Program-made: the position numbers and the translations under genes
Notes under the pieces: model-generated
The model's input: only the letters and a program-made list of their open reading frames with translations
Databases searched by the model: none
Told to the model about the DNA's origin: nothing
In this document: positions 254-8,373 of the stretch, one piece after another
Layout of the letters: every line of letters starts with the position of its first letter
Position numbering within the stretch: position 1 is the stretch's first letter
Virus record (IMG/VR): IMGVR_UViG_2671180432_000009
Length of the DNA: 8,373 bases
Direction: 5' to 3' (one strand)
DNA from: a virus
Lineage: Duplodnaviria > Heunggongvirae > Uroviricota > Caudoviricetes

Positions 254-470
254 NNNNNNNNNNNNNNNNNNNNNNNNNNNNNNNNNNNNNNNNNNNNNNN
301 NNNNNNNNNNNNNNNNNNNNNNNNNNNNNNNNNNNNNNNNNNNNNNNNNNNNNNNNNNNNNNNNNNNNNNNNNNNNNNNNNNNNNNNNNNNNNNNNNNNN
401 NNNNNNNNNNNNNNNNNNNNNNNNNNNNNNNNNNNNNNNNNNNNNNNNNNNNNNNNNNNNNNNNNNNNNN
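254..470. other. Run of 217 N (unresolved or masked sequence)
   Basis: Directly visible; ORFs drawn through it in the six-frame track are artefacts of N translation. Confidence 1.
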
Positions 471-734
471 CCATGGTTCTTTCCACCATCTGAAAAATAA
501 TTCTTTAAAATACCTGACATGTAATACAGAAAAAACACAAAACCATACCTTAAATAAAAACCTGATTATCAAGCAGATATGCATGGATAAACTACAAGAC
601 GAGATATAAACCACCCTGCATTTAAATAAACAATAAACAACATCAGAAAAATAATTCTGCTCTATGGTTTACATTCAAAAATATCATTTATACTTTTCAG
701 AACATCACCAGCAAGGCATAAACAAGGAAACTAA

Positions 735-1070
735 ATGAAGTGGATTGTGATTGATACAGTTATCCAGCCATCATGCGGAATATCTTTTTCAGTCATATGG
801 AGTAAAATAAAATTAATAATCTGGTATCAATCGGATGCTTTCTTACCTCCTGAAAGTATATTTACACTGACTCACACAGGCATCATGCTCAATAACAAAG
901 TGCTACCTGTAACCATTTACAACGTAGTACCATTCAATAAAACATTCTGGAATTCAATCAAAAATAGCCAGGAATGCCCTACAAATACAGATAACGTATT
1001 GAATGAATGCTTTAATAACCGTTGCACTCTGCAAATATGTCCTTATGGACTAAAACAACAAAGTCCATAA
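735..1070 (+). CDS. Hypothetical protein, 111 aa, in an AT-rich island (possible moron gene)
   Basis: Only ORF over 60 codons in the AT-rich stretch 480..1100, where stop codons are frequent by chance. AAGGA Shine-Dalgarno about 7 nt upstream of ATG 735. 6 of 111 codons are ATA. Five Cys in the C-terminal half. No family recognised. Confidence 0.45.
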
Positions 1071-1104
1071 GGAGTTTACTCACATCTGACAAAATCAATA
1101 TAAA

Positions 1105-1126
1105 CAGCCCCTCCGGAGAGGGGCTG
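1105..1126 (-). terminator. Stem-loop (9-bp stem CAGCCCCTC/GAGGGGCTG, 4-nt loop); probable intrinsic terminator for the minus-strand cargo operon
   Basis: On the minus strand the hairpin is followed by TTTATATTGATTTTG; it lies 76 nt past the stop of the ORF ending at 1202 and between convergent ORFs. Confidence 0.4.
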
Positions 1127-1201
1127 GAGAGTGGCGCTATGTGCCATTGCATGGTGCCGGGTGCCTCCCGGTGAATTCAGTACCAGCACCTGAATCCGCG
1201 A

Positions 1202-1373
1202 TTATCCCATATACCTACTCGCTGATTGCCCCTCCGCACAGGGGGATTCACCATGCCAGTTTCTTTTAACAAACTCCCCGCAAAACAGACAACTGTCAAC
1301 CGTCTGAATTGTGAAGTATTTAAAAATTTCTCCCGCTAACTGATACCCGGCTAACAGTCTGGCGTTTTCTTTT
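1202..1373 (-). CDS. Hypothetical protein, C-terminal 56 codons visible (...KENARLLAGYQLAGEIFKYFTIQTVDSCLFCGEFVKRNWHGESPCAEGQSASRYMG*); interrupted by N-run
   Basis: Open frame from the N-run to TAA at 1204..1202; all three Arg codons are AGA/AGG. A possible N-terminus (MIAYCFCEWHCSSRIMSVLADGVLVA) at 1687..1610 cannot be linked in frame because of the N-run. Confidence 0.4.
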
Positions 1374-2691: not shown

Positions 2692-2700
2692 GGGAGCCGC

Positions 2701-2729
2701 ATAATAACGACGCGTAATTAATTCTTCAA
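2701..2729 (-). promoter_or_regulatory. Putative sigma70 promoter for tRNA-Ile
   Basis: Minus strand: -35 TTGAAG (2729..2724), 17-nt spacer, -10 TATTAT (2706..2701), 9 nt upstream of the tRNA 5' end. Confidence 0.4.
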
Positions 2730-2731
2730 TA

Positions 2732-3729
2732 TCATCCGTTCTGGCTGACTAAATCCTGTACTTCCCGAACCGTCTGCTCAAAACGTTCAGTCTCCAGCTC
2801 AACGCCAATTGCACGACGCCCGAGCGCCAGTGCCGCTTTCACTGTCGAACCCAACCCCATGAAAAAATCTGCAATCAGGTCACCCGGACGACTGCTAGCG
2901 CTGATTATCTGCTGCAGCATTTCTGCCGGTTTTTCGCACGGATGTTTCCCGGGATAGAACTGCACCGGTTTATGCGTCCACACATCGGTATACGGCACCT
3001 GCACCGTCACGCCAAAATACCGCCGCAGATGTTTATATTCACTCAGCAGCTCCGCATACTGCCGGTTCAGTGAGGTATACGTATCCACCAGCTGGTGGTG
3101 GAGCTTTTCCAGTTCACCACGCCGATGCTTCTCTTCTGCCACCCGGGCAAACAGCGCCTGTAATTTCAGATAATCGCTTTCATTCGGCAACTGCCACTGA
3201 CCGGCACTGAACCAGTGCGACACCATGTTTTTCTTTCCTGTGGCATCTGCAATCTGTTTTGCCGTTATCCCCAGGGCAGCTCGCGCATCACGAAAGTAAN
3301 NNNNNNNNNNNNNNNNNNNNNNNNNNNNNNNNNNNNNNNNNNNNNNNNNNNNNNNNNNNNNNNNNNNNNNNNNNNNNNNNNNNNNNNNNNNNNNNNNNNN
3401 NNNNNNNNNNNNNNNNNNNNNNNNNNNNNNNNNNNNNNNNNNNNNNNNNNNNNNNNNNNNNNNNNNNNNNNNNNNNNNNNNNNNNNNNNNNNNNNNNNNN
3501 NNNNNNNNNNNNGTTTCAGCACCCGCCAGAACTGCGCCAGACACTGGTCCAGCCACTTCAGGTAATCATCGTCGCCCTTCCACTGGTTATCCCAGCCCTC
3601 AGGCTTCACTTTAAAGTACGGCGGGTCCGTGACTATCAGGTCAACAGAATTTTCGGGTAACGACCGGATAAATTCCAGGCAGTCGGCGTTGATTAACTCA
3701 CAACTGGATATTTTTACAGTATTAAGCAT
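2732..3729 (-). CDS. DNA methyltransferase, beta-class N6-adenine (or N4-cytosine) type; middle part lost in the N-run 3300..3512
   Basis: N-terminal segment (3729..3513) has motif IV DPPY (LIVTDPPYF); C-terminal segment (3299..2732) has motif I FxGxG (DFFMGLGST). The order IV then I indicates beta class. The two segments are in different frames if the N-run length is taken literally. Confidence 0.8.
3300..3512. other. Run of 213 N (unresolved or masked sequence) inside the methyltransferase gene
   Basis: Directly visible. Confidence 1.
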
Positions 3730-3821
3730 GGATCATTAAGCCTGTCTCTGATAGGCTCATTCTGCTTTTGCGCAAAGCAGTGGGCCTGAGGTTTGCTTGT
3801 GAACCCAACGCATGAGCAGAT

Positions 3822-3852
3822 GGCTGGTGGGTGCCCCTAACACCCACCAGCC
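3822..3852. promoter_or_regulatory. Perfect 12-bp inverted repeat (GGCTGGTGGGTG / CACCCACCAGCC, 7-nt loop) upstream of the methyltransferase start
   Basis: Seen directly; no U-tract on either strand, so not a classic intrinsic terminator. Candidate operator or RNA structural element about 90 nt upstream of ATG 3729. Confidence 0.5.
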
Positions 3853-3867
3853 GCCCATTTACCACAA

Positions 3868-3893
3868 ATAAAAAAGCCTTCACTGCGGAAGGC
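3868..3893 (-). terminator. Intrinsic terminator overlapping the stop codon of the small HTH gene
   Basis: Minus strand GCCTTC-CGCAGT-GAAGGC followed by TTTTTTATTT; the TGA stop (3882..3880) sits in the loop and stem. Confidence 0.55.
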
Positions 3894-4077
3894 GTCTGTA
3901 ACAACCGAACTGATAGTCTGCCAGACCCGCCATAACCAGCTGGGTCAGTATTAACTGGCAGCGTTCGCGTGAAAGGTAAGTATTCTGCGCTATCTCCCCG
4001 ACTGTCGCCGGTTCGGTAACGCTTAATTCATTAAACACCACTCTGGCGGTTTCTGTCATATCCTGCTGTTTTAGCAT
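3880..4077 (-). CDS. Small DNA-binding protein with a helix-turn-helix-like segment, 65 aa
   Basis: AAGGA Shine-Dalgarno 6-7 nt upstream of ATG 4077; the segment TVGEIAQNTYLSRERCQLILTQLVMAGL resembles an HTH recognition region. Family not recognised. Confidence 0.5.
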   Translation of the reverse strand: MLKQQDMTETARVVFNELSVTEPATVGEIAQNTYLSRERCQLILTQLVMAGLADYQFGCYRRLPQ

Positions 4078-4195
4078 GTCTTTTCCTTTTCCGGTTAACG
4101 TGACACACCAATAACTCTTGTCGAAAAAGCCAGCAAGCTGAAAGACAGGTATTCACCGCCACCAGCGCGTTTACTGTACTGACGCGATTTCAGTC

Positions 4196-4221
4196 ATAAA
4201 AAACCCGCTCGGCGGCGGGTT
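4196..4221 (-). terminator. Intrinsic terminator (tR'-like), copy 2, about 80 nt past the Q stop
   Basis: Minus strand AACCCGC-CGCCGA-GCGGGTT followed by TTTTATG. Confidence 0.6.
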
Positions 4222-4268
4222 GTAGAAACTCTTCTAACGTCAGGCATAAAACGCCCATCGTTATGACG

Positions 4269-4296
4269 AATTTACCACAGATTCCGGAAAAATCAA
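4269..4296 (-). promoter_or_regulatory. Late promoter (pR'-like) immediately downstream of Q, copy 2
   Basis: Minus strand: -35 TTGATT (4296..4291), 16-nt spacer, TGG-TAAATT extended -10 (4274..4269); the predicted transcript to the terminator is about 65 nt, as expected for a short Q-modifiable pR' transcript. Confidence 0.45.
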
Positions 4297-4301
4297 CCTT
4301 G

Positions 4302-5123
4302 TTACCTAGTTACCTTTTTTAACTGCCGCTCAGCCCATGCTTCTTCAATATCAAACCGGGTCACCAGCGCATCATAAAATTTCTTAACTGTTTTTTCCCA
4401 TGACGCGCGTGTTATCTGGTTTGTCACCTCGCATATAGCATTAAATGCCTCCGTTGATGGTAGTCTTTCATAGCCACGACCACCACAACGCTGGCAGTCT
4501 CTGATAACAGGCATACCACGTTTTACCGACTCTTCACGATGAATGGCGACACCACGCCCACGGCAATCCTTACAGGCGGTGGAAACCTCACCCTTTCCGC
4601 CACACTCCGGACAGGCAACTTTTACCACCTCCCTGACTTTTTTCCATTCTTCCCAGTAAGACGGATACACACCTTTCGTACACTTTGCCCATACCGGCGG
4701 CTTACCATCCGGATACTGGACCTTGTTTGTAAAAACTACGCTTTCAATAAATTTTTCCCCATAGCAACAAGGGCACTGCTTTTTACTCGCTGCGCTGCGG
4801 GCATAATCCTCAAAAGCGTACGAAGCCATAATGCGCATCACTACCGGTTTTATTTCTGCCGGAAGTTTTCTCAACGCCGCCACACGATCGCACCGACTGA
4901 GTGCATAATCTGCCAGTAATTCTGTTGCCCGCGCCCTGTCATTCATACTGATGCCCATTTTCCCCAGGAACGCAGAAAACCCCATCTCAGCCCGATTCTG
5001 TGTCATGCCCTGCGCGGCCATCACATCAGTGATACTCAGCGCATCTTTCGACGTTGAGGCCGATGCATCAGTCAGGCCGGGGGATTTTGGGGAGTAGTAT
5101 TTCGGTAAATCTTCCAGTTTCAT
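4302..5123 (-). CDS. Late-gene antiterminator Q-like protein, 273 aa, with four DnaJ-type CxxCxGxG repeats
   Basis: Position is diagnostic: directly downstream of rusA with an ATGA start/stop overlap and directly upstream of the promoter/terminator unit and tRNA genes. Size fits the long Qin-type Q proteins as recalled. Repeats CPCCYGEK, CPECGGKG, CKDCRGRG, CQRCGGRG are visible. Confidence 0.6.
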   Translation of the reverse strand: MKLEDLPKYYSPKSPGLTDASASTSKDALSITDVMAAQGMTQNRAEMGFSAFLGKMGISMNDRARATELLADYALSRCDRVAALRKLPAEIKPVVMRIMASYAFEDYARSAASKKQCPCCYGEKFIESVVFTNKVQYPDGKPPVWAKCTKGVYPSYWEEWKKVREVVKVACPECGGKGEVSTACKDCRGRGVAIHREESVKRGMPVIRDCQRCGGRGYERLPSTEAFNAICEVTNQITRASWEKTVKKFYDALVTRFDIEEAWAERQLKKVTR

Positions 5124-5500
5124 TTTTTGACCTGCCCTTCAAGCATTATGGGATAAATCTTCACCCCCAGACGTCCACCAGATACTGGCTGAGCACGAAC
5201 GATATTGATTTCATCAAACTGCTCATCGTCCATTAGCAACCCCGCATGCGTCAGCGCATCCAGCGGCGCTTTCAGAATATTGTCCAGGTCACGGCGGCGC
5301 TTATCCGGTGGTTCTGCAATAATTTTTATTGCCAACCTTCCGGACAGGCTTAATTTCAGCCGCTGCTGGCGAACAATAAGCGCCACTGCCCGGCGATAAC
5401 GCTCCCCGGCTTTTGATACAAAATATGTGCTGCCACGACGACGCCAGTAAGTGTTCACCGTCGGCGGGTAAGGTAAAACAAATTCTATGCGCTCGGTCAT
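5120..5500 (-). CDS. rusA: Holliday junction resolvase RusA (crossover junction endodeoxyribonuclease)
   Basis: 126 aa; N-terminal PYPPTVNTYWRRRG and catalytic-region RRRDLDNILKAPLDALTHAGLLMDDEQ closely match the RusA family as recalled; typical position upstream of Q. Confidence 0.9.
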   Translation of the reverse strand: MTERIEFVLPYPPTVNTYWRRRGSTYFVSKAGERYRRAVALIVRQQRLKLSLSGRLAIKIIAEPPDKRRRDLDNILKAPLDALTHAGLLMDDEQFDEINIVRAQPVSGGRLGVKIYPIMLEGQVKK

Positions 5501-6559
5501 TTATGCTTTCCACTTCAGAACACCCGAATTTCTCGCGTGCATTAAAAAACGAATCAGCAACAACAGCTGACTGCCGTGTTTCTCTTCAAAATCTTTTACT
5601 CCGGCATGTAGTTCGTTACGGCATTTACGGCATAACGGAATAACAAACAAATCATCAGCCTTTGTTCCCATCCCTCCCAGTCCATGACCAATGATGTGAT
5701 GCGGATCATCTGCCTGATTGCCACACGTCATGCATTTCTGCGTTTTTACCCAGCGCGTGTATACAGGCATCTCTTCCCGTTGTGATTTCTGGCGCTGGAG
5801 ATACTGAGCCGGTGACTCCGGATCAACGGCAATGCTGACCACCGTCTTTTCCTGTGGTGGGTTCTGTTGCTGGTGGACGTGAGGCAGTAACGCAATATTT
5901 TTTGTGCGCTGCTTCAGTATGCTGGTGGCTGTCTGCTCTCCCGGTATGATGTCGCTTTCACTGTACACAGAGCGAATTTTTTCCGCACGCAACCCCAGCG
6001 AACGACGTAATACCGCTTCCGGTAGCGCGTCCGCCACCTGATTGCGGACCGCCCACCAGGATAATTCAGCCAGAGATAATTCACGCTCCTGCGTACCGCT
6101 TATTGCGTGACCGATGACGTCAATCATCCATGCTGACAGGTTTTGATGAGCAAGTTGCTCGAGTGATTCGGATGTCTGGTCACGCAGCTGGTTGTCGCAG
6201 TGCCAGCACAACACCATTGCGCCGGTACCATAACGGTGAATGACGGTTTCGCTGTGATGATAATCGCCGTGTGGCCACTGGCAGGATTTAATATGGCGCA
6301 ACAGCCAGTCAGACAATGCACCAGCACCACCAGCAGCACGAATCACCCGTGCGTTACTGAAAAACGGCAGCAATGTTTTGTCTTCCACCAGCGGCTGGCG
6401 AGCGGCAGGAACGACCCCGGACGGCAGATTACGCATGCTTTTTGGTTCCGGCTCCACCAGTATTCTGCCGTTATGGAATGCTGACATTGATTCACGGCCT
6501 GGCTTAACGATAACCAGACCGAGTTCCGGTACCAGAACAGGTCGAAGTAATACCCGCAC
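5501..6559 (-). CDS. DUF968-like protein (YdfU-like), 352 aa, Cys/His-rich C-terminal motif
   Basis: Size and position match the YdfU family of Qin-like prophages as recalled; C-terminal CMTCGNQADDPHHIIGHG...CRKCRNELH looks like an HNH or zinc-binding motif. GTG start at 6559 after GGAGG; start uncertain. Confidence 0.75.
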   Translation of the reverse strand: MRVLLRPVLVPELGLVIVKPGRESMSAFHNGRILVEPEPKSMRNLPSGVVPAARQPLVEDKTLLPFFSNARVIRAAGGAGALSDWLLRHIKSCQWPHGDYHHSETVIHRYGTGAMVLCWHCDNQLRDQTSESLEQLAHQNLSAWMIDVIGHAISGTQERELSLAELSWWAVRNQVADALPEAVLRRSLGLRAEKIRSVYSESDIIPGEQTATSILKQRTKNIALLPHVHQQQNPPQEKTVVSIAVDPESPAQYLQRQKSQREEMPVYTRWVKTQKCMTCGNQADDPHHIIGHGLGGMGTKADDLFVIPLCRKCRNELHAGVKDFEEKHGSQLLLLIRFLMHARNSGVLKWKA

Positions 6560-6634
6560 ATTACCTCCAGATCCGTTGCTGGAATGTGCGGGACGGACGC
6601 GTTGGCCGTTCGGAGTAAGGGAGCCTGACGGAGA

Positions 6635-6916
6635 TTATCCAGTGACGGTAGTCGAGGCTAAGGGCTTTTTTAACCTCGCATCCGCGCCTGCGGTAACACT
6701 GAATGAGCCATTCGGCCTGTTCTTCAGTGCATGGGGGATGCTGGTACCAATCAGATTTAAATGCGTGAGAGCGCCGCCCGTGCCTGCTGGCAAAGACGGC
6801 TGAATTATCAGAATTGTGTAGTCTGGAAGGCAGTGGCTGACAATAGCGCCATTCTCAACGCGCACAGTATAGAGGCCATCTTCACTAAAAATTTCACGTA
6901 ATTCTTCGATTTTCAT
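6635..6916 (-). CDS. Hypothetical protein, 93 aa
   Basis: GGAAGGA Shine-Dalgarno 8 nt upstream of ATG 6916 (the ORF track begins one codon earlier at TTG 6919); sits between the hok terminator and the DUF968 gene. Confidence 0.5.
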   Translation of the reverse strand: MKIEELREIFSEDGLYTVRVENGAIVSHCLPDYTILIIQPSLPAGTGGALTHLNLIGTSIPHALKNRPNGSFSVTAGADARLKKPLASTTVTG

Positions 6917-7039
6917 CAACAGAATCCTTCCAGATAAATAGCACTCCCCTGTTCGGGGTCCATCCCTCTTCTCCCTGCGCGCTACTTAAGTATTTTTGAT
7001 TCTATTCCGGCACCATCTAAAACTTCAAACGCGTTGAAA

Positions 7040-7068
7040 ATAAAAACAAAAACCCGCCGAAGCGGGTT
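7040..7068 (-). terminator. Intrinsic terminator of the hok/mok transcript
   Basis: Minus strand AACCCGC-TTCG-GCGGGTT followed by TTTTGTTTTTATTTT; about 70 nt past the hok stop. Confidence 0.7.
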
Positions 7069-7136
7069 AAGTGTGGGTGCATTGAGGATGCCTGACCCAT
7101 CAGAGGTGGCGAGGGATTTCTCCCCCGCCTGGTCTC

Positions 7137-7292
7137 TTACTCCTCAGGTTCGTAAGCTGTGAAGACAGCGACCTCCGTCTGGCCGGTTCGAATTCGTACC
7201 TCGCAGAGGTCTTTCCTCGTTACCAGTGCCGTCACTATGACGGTTAAACAGATGACGATCAGGGCGATTAACATCGCCTTTTGCTGCTTCAT
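7137..7292 (-). CDS. hok: Hok/Gef-family type I toxin, 51 aa
   Basis: MKQQKAMLIALIVICLTVIVTALVTRKDLCEVRIRTGQTEVAVFTAYEPEE closely matches the Hok/Gef family (HokD/RelF-like as recalled); AGGAG Shine-Dalgarno upstream. Confidence 0.85.
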   Translation of the reverse strand: MKQQKAMLIALIVICLTVIVTALVTRKDLCEVRIRTGQTEVAVFTAYEPEE

Positions 7293-7349
7293 AGCCTGCT
7301 TCTCCTTGCCTTTCGGCACGTAAGAGGCTAACCTAGATTTGCCGTTCAT
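7137..7349 (-). CDS. mok: Mok-like in-frame N-terminally extended reading frame (70 aa) overlapping hok
   Basis: ORF starts 19 codons upstream of hok in the same frame, as in chromosomal mokC/hokC loci as recalled. Confidence 0.55.
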   Translation of the reverse strand: MNGKSRLASYVPKGKEKQAMKQQKAMLIALIVICLTVIVTALVTRKDLCEVRIRTGQTEVAVFTAYEPEE

Positions 7350-7400
7350 AGATTGAGCCTCAGATTAATGTTAAGCGTCTTGCCGGACGCGTAATGTTAA
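7295..7400 (+). ncRNA. Expected position of a Sok-like antisense RNA opposite the mok translation-initiation region (boundaries not resolved)
   Basis: Inference from hok/sok architecture only; a weak plus-strand hairpin GCGTC-TTGCCG-GACGC lies at about 7364..7379. No promoter identified with confidence. Confidence 0.25.
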
Positions 7401-7468
7401 CTGGGGCTTTTCTCTATCTGCCTTTTGGTGTTCATGCCTGAGACAGATAGCCTCAAGCACCCGCTGCA

Positions 7469-7496
7469 ATTCTACTTAACTCTCCTTTTCCCGCAA
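7469..7496 (-). promoter_or_regulatory. Putative promoter of the hok/mok mRNA
   Basis: Minus strand: -35 TTGCGG (7496..7491), 16-nt spacer, -10 TAGAAT (7474..7469), upstream of a leader beginning GCTTGAGGCTATCTGTCTCAGGC that resembles hok mRNA 5' ends as recalled. Confidence 0.35.
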
Positions 7497-7503
7497 ACCG
7501 TTT

Positions 7504-7587
7504 TTATCCCCAGCGGCAAATCGAATACACCACCAGCGCCACCGCCATCGCAATTCCTACCGTTGTTAATGCTTCAGGCCAGGTCAT
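7504..7587 (-). CDS. Putative 27-aa hydrophobic peptide ([27 protein letters not shown])
   Basis: Absent from the ORF track (under 60 aa). ATG 7587 overlaps the TGA of the upstream gene (ATGA); GGAGGA Shine-Dalgarno 9 nt upstream; single predicted transmembrane-like segment. Confidence 0.3.
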
Positions 7588-7928
7588 CGTAAAATATCCT
7601 CCACGCTTATCAGTCCGTTCCGCTCCAGATAACTCATCGCCTTATCCGGTAATTTGCAGTCTGGCTTCGCTTTCCTCAGTTGCCAGGTTAACTGCTTTAC
7701 CAGCATGGTTAACTCATCGACCAGACGCTGATATCCCACTGGTTTGTATTCATGCAATTTACCGGCTGGCTCTGCTGCCAGCGATACCAGTGCGATTTCC
7801 AGAACAGCAATATCCATCTTATATGTGCGGATGATGTCATGGTCGATTGTGCCCGGTATGCACAGTCTCTGTGCTTCAATAGTCTCCTCTGCGTGAGCTA
7901 TTAACTGCTCTCTGGTAAAAGTCGTCAT
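7584..7928 (-). CDS. Hypothetical protein, 114 aa
   Basis: Six-frame ORF; start overlaps the stop of the upstream 55-aa ORF (ATGA); shares an N-terminal MTTxT motif and an IAL-SL-AEP motif with that ORF. Confidence 0.6.
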
Positions 7929-8092
7929 GCCGTAGCCCCTTCTTGATATTTTTCAAACCAGAACACAACCGGCTCTGCTTCCAGCGATGCCAGCGCAATC
8001 CGTGCCAGTTCCATTTGTTCACCACGGGTAAGCCCGTTTTCAAGCGGGTTTTTAATGAACAATTCAATACGTTCTTTGGTAATAGTGGTCAT
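7925..8092 (-). CDS. Hypothetical protein, 55 aa ([55 protein letters not shown])
   Basis: Absent from the ORF track; strong AAGGAG Shine-Dalgarno 6 nt upstream of ATG 8092; stop overlaps the next start. Preferred over the 63-aa ORF at 7876..8067, which is in another frame. Confidence 0.5.
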
Positions 8093-8102
8093 GTGTTACT
8101 CC

Positions 8103-8333
8103 TTAACCCGCAGTGCTTTCAACTGATGAGGGGAACAAAATCTTTTCATCAAACCCTGCATTCATATCATGAACAGCAACACACCAATCCATCGACGAAC
8201 GATTATCAAGAGCCTCCATGATTTCATCCATGCGGCGTAGGTCATACAGGTAAATGCTTTTATCGCCAATGGTGTAAAAGCCAATTTTTTTCGGTGATGG
8301 ATGAGGTGTACTGGCAATAGCGGACACTACCAT
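8103..8333 (-). CDS. Hypothetical protein, 76 aa
   Basis: Six-frame ORF; first gene of the coupled block; its first 10 codons and upstream region lie in the right inverted repeat. Weak Shine-Dalgarno. Confidence 0.5.
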   Translation of the reverse strand: MVVSAIASTPHPSPKKIGFYTIGDKSIYLYDLRRMDEIMEALDNRSSMDWCVAVHDMNAGFDEKILFPSSVESTAG

Positions 8334-8373
8334 TTGTTCTTTTTTTAAGCAGCCATCTGATGATATTTTTCCC
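8302..8373. repeat. Right terminal inverted repeat (partner of 1..72)
   Basis: See 1..72. Confidence 0.9.

Follow-up and report, generated by a model that had tools for sequence, protein, structure and literature searches.

The question raised by this locus is what a strongly AT-rich patch, with a single open reading frame that points against its neighbours, is doing among the late genes of a prophage. In the window, by which we mean the whole stretch of 8,373 nucleotides analysed here, an earlier note made from the letters alone had taken the composition and orientation of this patch as signs of independent acquisition and of independent, possibly H-NS-silenced, regulation. The gene itself was not recognised at that time; the open reading frame corresponds to iraL, which has already been characterised. 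The new points offered here are modest and consist of the exact boundaries of the cassette, its pairing with the small RNA STnc100, a third paralog behind stx2 in an Stx2c phage, and an invariant Cys4 tail in the protein.

Composition, borders and surroundings of the AT-rich patch

Four masked runs of Ns are present in the window (254-470, 1374-1609, 2418-2607 and 3300-3512), and the raw GC profile is therefore distorted. With the Ns removed, the GC content of positions 471-1100 is 32.5%, whereas the whole window has 47.7% and positions 2700-8373 have 50.0%, so the sharp drop that had been noticed between about 480 and 1100 is borne out. The mapped island at 475-1105 (approximately 631 bp, 32.3% GC) lies practically at the minimum of the 4744 N-free sliding windows of 631 bp (mean 0.491, sd 0.039, z = -4.3); the lowest of these is found at position 473 with a GC of 0.322, and to the right of the island every 631-bp window start gives at least 40.3% GC. 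In the unmasked copy from E. coli 042 the island has 32.5% GC against 52.7% in the 300 bp on each side. GC content is 29.6% upstream from the open reading frame and 34.5% inside it, on a background of approximately 50%.

The left edge, previously put at “about 480”, is not visible in the window itself because positions 254-470 are masked, and it was placed at 475 from the relatives. Homology to phage PhiR5_1 (L005) stops at the ATG (474) of a DUF1737/NanS-p-type gene and restarts at 1106, and in place of the island PhiR5_1 carries a 233-bp spacer with 49.8% GC. Comparison with PhiR5_1 and E. coli 042 (L001), together with the composition, places the junctions at 474/475 and 1105/1106, so that the AT-rich iraL cassette covers 475..1105 (no strand assigned). 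At the left junction only the start of the DUF1737/NanS-p-type late gene is seen (471..489, minus strand, ATG at 474-472, according to the annotated starts in 042, CFT073 and strain 131), the remainder being under the N run at 254-470. The island is absent, with both flanks kept, from PhiR5_1, from the prophage of ATCC 11775 (L007) and from the IMG/VR locus L013, while it is present in CFT073, 042 and strain 131; in several phages the right flank is kept without iraL. The features expected of a “moron”, i.e. presence or absence among homologous phages, precise junctions and deviant composition, are accordingly all found. Because the relatives have a spacer of normal GC content at the site of the island, the suggestion of independent acquisition is supported, and we regard the AT-rich patch, on the basis of these alignments, as a small, separately acquired prophage cassette that carries iraL.

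On the minus strand of the window we find genes for the Q antiterminator (4302-5123; PF03589, E=6e-55), RusA (5120-5500), DUF968 (5501-6559) and Hok (7137-7349; Pfam HOK_GEF, E=3e-23), as well as tRNA-Arg (2187-2261), tRNA(CAT) (2616-2691) and a DNA methyltransferase gene (2732-3729) between Q and the tRNAs. The order of genes in CFT073 (the potB prophage), 042 and strain 131 is hokD, DUF968, RusA, Q, methyltransferase (some copies), tRNAs, DUF3927, iraL (antisense), DUF1737, holin, lysozyme and Rz. It is clear that the open reading frame runs opposite to the late genes, as had been stated, since Q, RusA, DUF968, the tRNAs and DUF1737 are all on the other strand, but rather than being convergent with the late operon it is better described as lying within it in antisense, with Q on one side and the lysis genes on the other. 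With the STnc100 terminator on one side and the start of the DUF1737/NanS-p-type gene on the other, iraL is therefore located between Q and the lysis cassette, which is the toxin slot of Stx phages. Some other features of this region may be mentioned. The Q protein also matches the DnaJ CXXCXGXG zinc-finger domain below the threshold (28.4 bits, cut-off 32.7), and hok is part of a hok/sok type I toxin-antitoxin locus at 7137-7462 (minus strand) with Sok (RF01794) at 7462..7287 scoring 112 bits. The methyltransferase gene is found in strain 131 and ATCC 11775 and is absent from the CFT073 and 042 prophages, making it another variable module of the late region.

The two ends of the window, 1-72 and 8302-8373, are exact reverse complements of each other and match the end of an element with an IS3-family transposase; multiple copies of this element are found in E. 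coli as well as on plasmids. As often happens in assemblies of Shigella, the contig represented by the window appears to end in an inverted IS copy on either side. Segment 72-253 is not located beside iraL in CFT073 or 042; it abuts the STnc100 hairpin in ATCC 11775 (L007 3001-3182) and in L013, and for this reason we consider the left flank of the island to be rearranged here. The junction of this rearrangement falls under the N run at 254-470; a genome-contig search gave no match to the window-specific junction, and none of the five loci from IMG/VR has the exact arrangement of the window across this first N run. The N run at 1374-1609 is 236 nt long, but its counterpart in L001, L003, L004 and L008, loci that are collinear elsewhere, measures only approximately 31 nt. 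The run of Ns may therefore not reflect the real length; otherwise the window has approximately 200 extra bases in the region of the DUF3927 gene.

In the right flank, outside the island, lies the gene for STnc100 (1096..1285, minus strand), a known prophage sRNA related to PasD. The Rfam model RF02076 is matched over its full length with 133.6 bits (gathering score 47, E=4.6e-30). The palindrome at 1105..1126, at the right island junction, has nine base pairs, seven of them G-C. A T-run comes after it on the minus strand alone, and the palindrome, which falls inside the STnc100 model, is the intrinsic terminator of this sRNA. On the plus strand it is found 34 nt past the iraL stop codon with no U-tract after it, and hence the hairpin that the open reading frame was said to share does exist, but to call it shared is only partly right, and a canonical terminator belonging to iraL is absent at 1105-1126. 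As for the control elements of its own that a moron would carry, the cassette has a promoter with a start mapped at 702 (see below), while the only hairpin is the STnc100 terminator. The hairpin belongs to the flank and not to the island, because PhiR5_1 has it without having iraL. The iraL gene is constantly paired tail-to-tail with STnc100. In RefSeq relatives a pseudogene labelled “hypothetical protein, partial” overlaps STnc100 on the opposite strand, and the ATCC 11775 prophage has two tandem STnc100 copies in the iraL slot (L007 2693-2902 and 3180-3370, with 161 and 136 bits), which suggests that the unit of sRNA and hairpin is itself a recombining module.

The open reading frame at 735..1070 and its promoter

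The long open reading frame on the plus strand (735..1070, 111 aa plus stop) is indeed alone in the patch; it is the sole real one of the island, and other frames of 104-143 aa over positions 82-614 were rejected as artefacts of Ns translated as X. Compared with iraL from CFT073 (L003), 334 of 336 nucleotides and 110 of 111 residues are identical, the differences being the L74S substitution and one synonymous change, and over the 903 bp at 471-1373 the identity to both CFT073 and 042 is 99%. The gene therefore lies well above the identity of at least 95% to CFT073 iraL across the coding sequence which defines the iraL type of Hryckowian et al. (mBio 2014, PMC4045071), who reported IraL as the fourth RssB anti-adaptor and as the CFT073 homolog of IraM with 58.9% identity. 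The identity to IraM from K-12 is only 58.6% at the amino acid level and 70% at the nucleotide level, far from the 95% or more to K-12 iraM that, together with a homologous PhoP-dependent promoter, would define an iraM-type gene. Neither the open reading frame nor K-12 IraM gave any match in Pfam, even with E up to 10, and the PF11183 label precomputed on database homologs was not reproduced with the current copy of Pfam; the family was therefore settled with NCBIfam and PDB searches. NCBIfam NF007393 (PRK09919), the IraM/IraL/RssC anti-adaptor family, is matched with 162 bits (cut-off 121, E=4.7e-48) over nearly its full length, with residues 1-110 aligned to positions 1-113 of the 114 in the profile, and the PDB entry 8twd, “Anti-adapter protein IraM”, matches residues 1-78 with E=6e-31. 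Judged by identity, profile and structure, we conclude that 735..1070 is iraL, a characterised RssB anti-adaptor gene, here as the Shigella-type allele S74.

The same gene is widespread. A search of 5426 complete E. coli genomes found DNA of the iraL type with at least 90% identity in approximately 1446 records, at up to four places per genome, and in the same search K-12-type iraM appeared as a match of approximately 70%. Four phage records in INPHARED carry the iraL cassette. In RefSeq, thousands of E. coli genomes have the open reading frame labelled “anti-adapter protein IraM”, and for the exact protein there is an entry “MULTISPECIES: anti-adapter protein IraM [Shigella]”, present on approximately 999 contigs. 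The pairwise dN/dS values among iraL, iraM and the third type described below are between 0.10 and 0.15. The earlier note had named conserved non-coding DNA, or a frame disrupted in close relatives, as what would speak against its reading; with these dN/dS values and an intact open reading frame neither is the case. The coding region of K-12 iraM has 34.0% GC and its upstream region 26%, and since it is thereby equally AT-rich, we take low GC content to be a trait of the iraM/iraL family, which here would set the cassette apart as a module acquired separately.

The published 5’-RACE sequence of the iraL mRNA start, ACATCACCAGCAAGGCATAAACAAGGAAACCA (PMC4045071), is 32 nt long and matches positions 702-733 with one mismatch, a match obtained with none of 200 shuffled sequences. 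Based on this match the start of iraL transcription is placed at 702 with the ATG at +34 (735), leaving a 33-nt 5’ UTR with an AAGGA ribosome-binding site (702..734, plus strand), in agreement with the published “-100 to +33” construct. From the mapped start, a probable sigma-70-type promoter can be assigned by eye at 666..694 on the plus strand, with a -10 hexamer TATACT (689-694) and a -35 element within GGTTTACA (666-673); a sigma-70 consensus scan did not call this experimentally mapped promoter. No differences between the window, CFT073 and 042 occur in the promoter stretch 666-694, and across -100 to +33 (602-734) there are two differences from CFT073, at 701 and 732, so that also the promoter part of the iraL type, at least 96% identity to CFT073 with a mapped start, is found here. 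The suggestion of independent regulation is thus supported, with a mapped start 33 nt upstream from the ATG behind a sigma-70-type promoter. Similarity to the K-12 iraM locus begins only at 733, with none upstream, and the iraL and iraM promoters are therefore unrelated. A PhoP-box-like direct repeat, TGTTTA-N5-TATTTA with one mismatch, is found on the minus strand at 623..639, corresponding to -63 to -79 from the iraL start, and is probably there by chance: it was the single match at no more than one mismatch where 0.19 are expected per window, and 34 of 200 shuffled sequences gave at least one. The near-match, not being above chance, was rejected as an argument for PhoP control of iraL.

Predicted fold and cysteine tail of the protein

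The remote homology and structure prediction proposed for the 111-aa product place it in the IraM family with a fold matching the IraM crystal structure. In the AlphaFold2 model the N-terminal domain (residues 1-78, pLDDT 72-97) is predicted as a PmrD-like antiparallel β-barrel with a helix, and the top Foldseek match of the model is 8twd_A (TM 0.90, rmsd 1.3 Å, 64% identity), followed by PmrD, 4hn7. The IraM-RssB structure paper lists 14 residues in contact with RssB. At these positions ten residues are identical and the other four are conservatively substituted (T13S, L75I, H63N and I64V), corresponding to five of five identical in cluster I, three of five in cluster II (T13S, L75I) and two of four in cluster III (H63N, I64V). 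The L74S substitution adjoins contact position 75.

The protein has cysteines at residues 14, 81, 92, 97 and 102, and the C-terminal half was thus rightly called Cys-rich. The last four form the motif C81-x10-C92-x4-C97-x4-C102-P (codons 81-103, 975..1043, plus strand), which was assigned from conservation across 42 family members. With a profile, 97 relatives were found among 1.8 billion cluster representatives, those named being from Salmonella, Citrobacter, Enterobacter, Cronobacter, Intestinirhabdus and Dryocola. Among the 42 full-length members, with identities down to 20%, the only invariant columns are W72, C81, C97 and C102, with conservation of at least 90% at C92 and P103. Across the IraM/IraL family, conservation is highest at these four C-terminal cysteines and at the proline behind them. 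The spacing is mostly C-x10-C-x5-C-x4-C, and in E. coli C-x10-C-x4-C-x4-C.

The most conserved feature of the family is cut off in the only crystal structure, which comprises residues 1-78 of IraM; according to the structure paper, residues 79-107 were removed as less conserved and flexible, and full-length IraM was proteolytically unstable. Neither the structure paper nor its preprint discusses cysteines or metal in IraM. In our models, which are built with metals absent, the tail had pLDDT values below 50 with an alignment of 16 sequences and 53-69 with 42 sequences. A metal-binding or redox role for a module of the pattern C-x8-12-C-x3-6-C-x3-5-C-P-[YF] may be a reasonable idea from this conservation. 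If true, the stability or activity of anti-adaptors such as IraL and IraM could depend on the Cys4 module, which would tie RpoS stabilisation to the metal or oxidative status.

Proposed role of the cassette and known relatives

The target of IraL is RssB, which serves as the adaptor delivering sigma-S (RpoS) to ClpXP; by binding it, IraL blocks the degradation of RpoS (PMC4045071). [quoted passage not shown] The IraM-RssB structure shows that the IraM fold blocks the 4-5-5 face of RssB. By analogy with the near-identical CFT073 IraL (110/111 aa), the S74 allele is expected to bind RssB and stabilise sigma-S. The reading we prefer, with a probability of about 0.93, is that the island is a lysogenic-conversion “moron” cassette carrying iraL in a lambdoid prophage, which would be expressed apart from late transcription and raise the stress response of the host. 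With its own sigma-70-type promoter starting at 702 and read opposite to the late genes, iraL would be expressed in the lysogen independently of phage late transcription, and the raised sigma-S would give the host a pre-emptive general stress response, iraL being a gene that raises RpoS already during growth. During induction, Q-dependent late transcription would cross iraL in antisense and probably interfere with it; since the prophage is rearranged here, with the lysis cassette out of view, such transcription across iraL may have ceased in this particular copy. Lying antisense next to STnc100, in the conserved slot that separates Q from the lysis genes (and that directly follows stx2 in Stx2c phages), iraL may act as a switch coupled to the state of the prophage, on in the lysogen and off under Q-dependent late transcription. 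That either this switch operates, or residues 79-111 constitute a Cys4 metal-binding or redox-sensitive module and not a dispensable flexible appendage, is a tentative suggestion, which we would expect to fail more readily than to hold. In any case, what was an AT-rich island with an unknown open reading frame becomes an annotated lysogenic-conversion gene, in itself not new, in a cassette that occupies the toxin/moron slot of lambdoid phages.

The reading as a moron cassette has to be weighed against the silencing that the earlier note had suggested, in which the island would be transcriptionally silent xenogeneic DNA, coated by H-NS, with the open reading frame idle in normal growth. The low GC content both upstream and in the coding region would fit such silencing. 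H-NS reportedly regulates iraM, the paralog of iraL, as well as iraD (Battesti 2012); a literature search for H-NS binding data on iraL found none. The mRNA level of iraL in CFT073 rises by 1.6 log2, or approximately 3-fold, at 37 °C compared to 23 °C, which is a pattern typical of H-NS modulation. The levels of IraL are up in a fur mutant. Against silencing, however, stands the fact that the iraL mRNA was mapped by 5’-RACE in mid-log LB cultures and that the deletion lowers sigma-S in log phase in both CFT073 and S. sonnei (PMC4045071), and that the frame is unbroken and evolves under purifying selection. Full silencing is contradicted by a gene whose transcription and stabilising effect on sigma-S are both seen in log phase, and we consider a silent island unlikely, although a partial modulation of iraL by H-NS is possible.

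Far less probable is that the gene is the functional equivalent of K-12 iraM, activated through PhoP/PhoQ by Mg2+ starvation, and not an IraL of the log-phase type. The two belong to the same protein family, and the PhoP-box-like repeat with its one mismatch does lie upstream from the promoter, but this repeat is in reversed orientation at -63 to -79 and was equalled or bettered in 34 of the 200 shuffles, the promoters are unrelated, the sequence is 99% identical to iraL, and the published survey found no overlap between the iraL and iraM types (PMC4045071). Least probable of all is a decaying remnant with an inactive protein in a defective, IS-scrambled prophage. The inverted IS3-family ends, the rearranged left flank and the position of L74S beside an RssB contact could be taken in that direction, but the frame is full-length, and conservation extends to the promoter, the start site and the ribosome-binding site. 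As the exact protein sequence is widespread and recorded in Shigella, a fixed functional allele fits better than decay. The iraL cassette can be compared with four known systems.

PmrD, the polymyxin-resistance connector (PDB 4HN7), shares the predicted β-barrel fold over residues 1-78 (Foldseek E=1e-3, TM 0.75), but only 13% of its residues are identical and its partner is PmrA and not RssB. PmrD is not known to have the C-terminal Cys4 tail. The likeness between IraM and PmrD has been noted before (PMC10844676). Closer is IraM (YcgW) of K-12, induced by Mg2+ starvation through PhoPQ and solved in complex with RssB (8TWD), which belongs to the same family and has the same fold and the same five Cys positions; both genes have approximately 34% GC and both are located beside prophage DNA. 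IraM differs in its upstream region and inducing conditions, and IraL is four residues longer at the C-terminus.

The third IraM/IraL-like gene is found in the Stx2c prophage of E. coli strain 9000 (L009 4115-4438, plus strand, WP_001303568.1), where it lies between stx2B plus STnc100 and a NanS-p esterase gene. It has the same slot and orientation as iraL here, abutting STnc100 in a convergent manner and located upstream from the NanS-p esterase gene, and the nucleotide similarity of approximately 74% reaches into the promoter region. In contrast to iraL, it is located directly downstream from stx2AB, encodes 107 aa and has 40.7% GC; we found no functional study of this gene in the literature.

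The closest known system is IraL of CFT073 and S. sonnei, with the same gene, the same promoter and mapped start, and the same slot between the block of Q, tRNA, DUF3927 and STnc100 on one side and that of DUF1737, holin and lysozyme on the other. Compared to CFT073, the protein in the window carries L74S, the Shigella-type allele, and the prophage differs by having a methyltransferase gene between Q and the tRNAs and by a left side that is interrupted by an IS3-family element.
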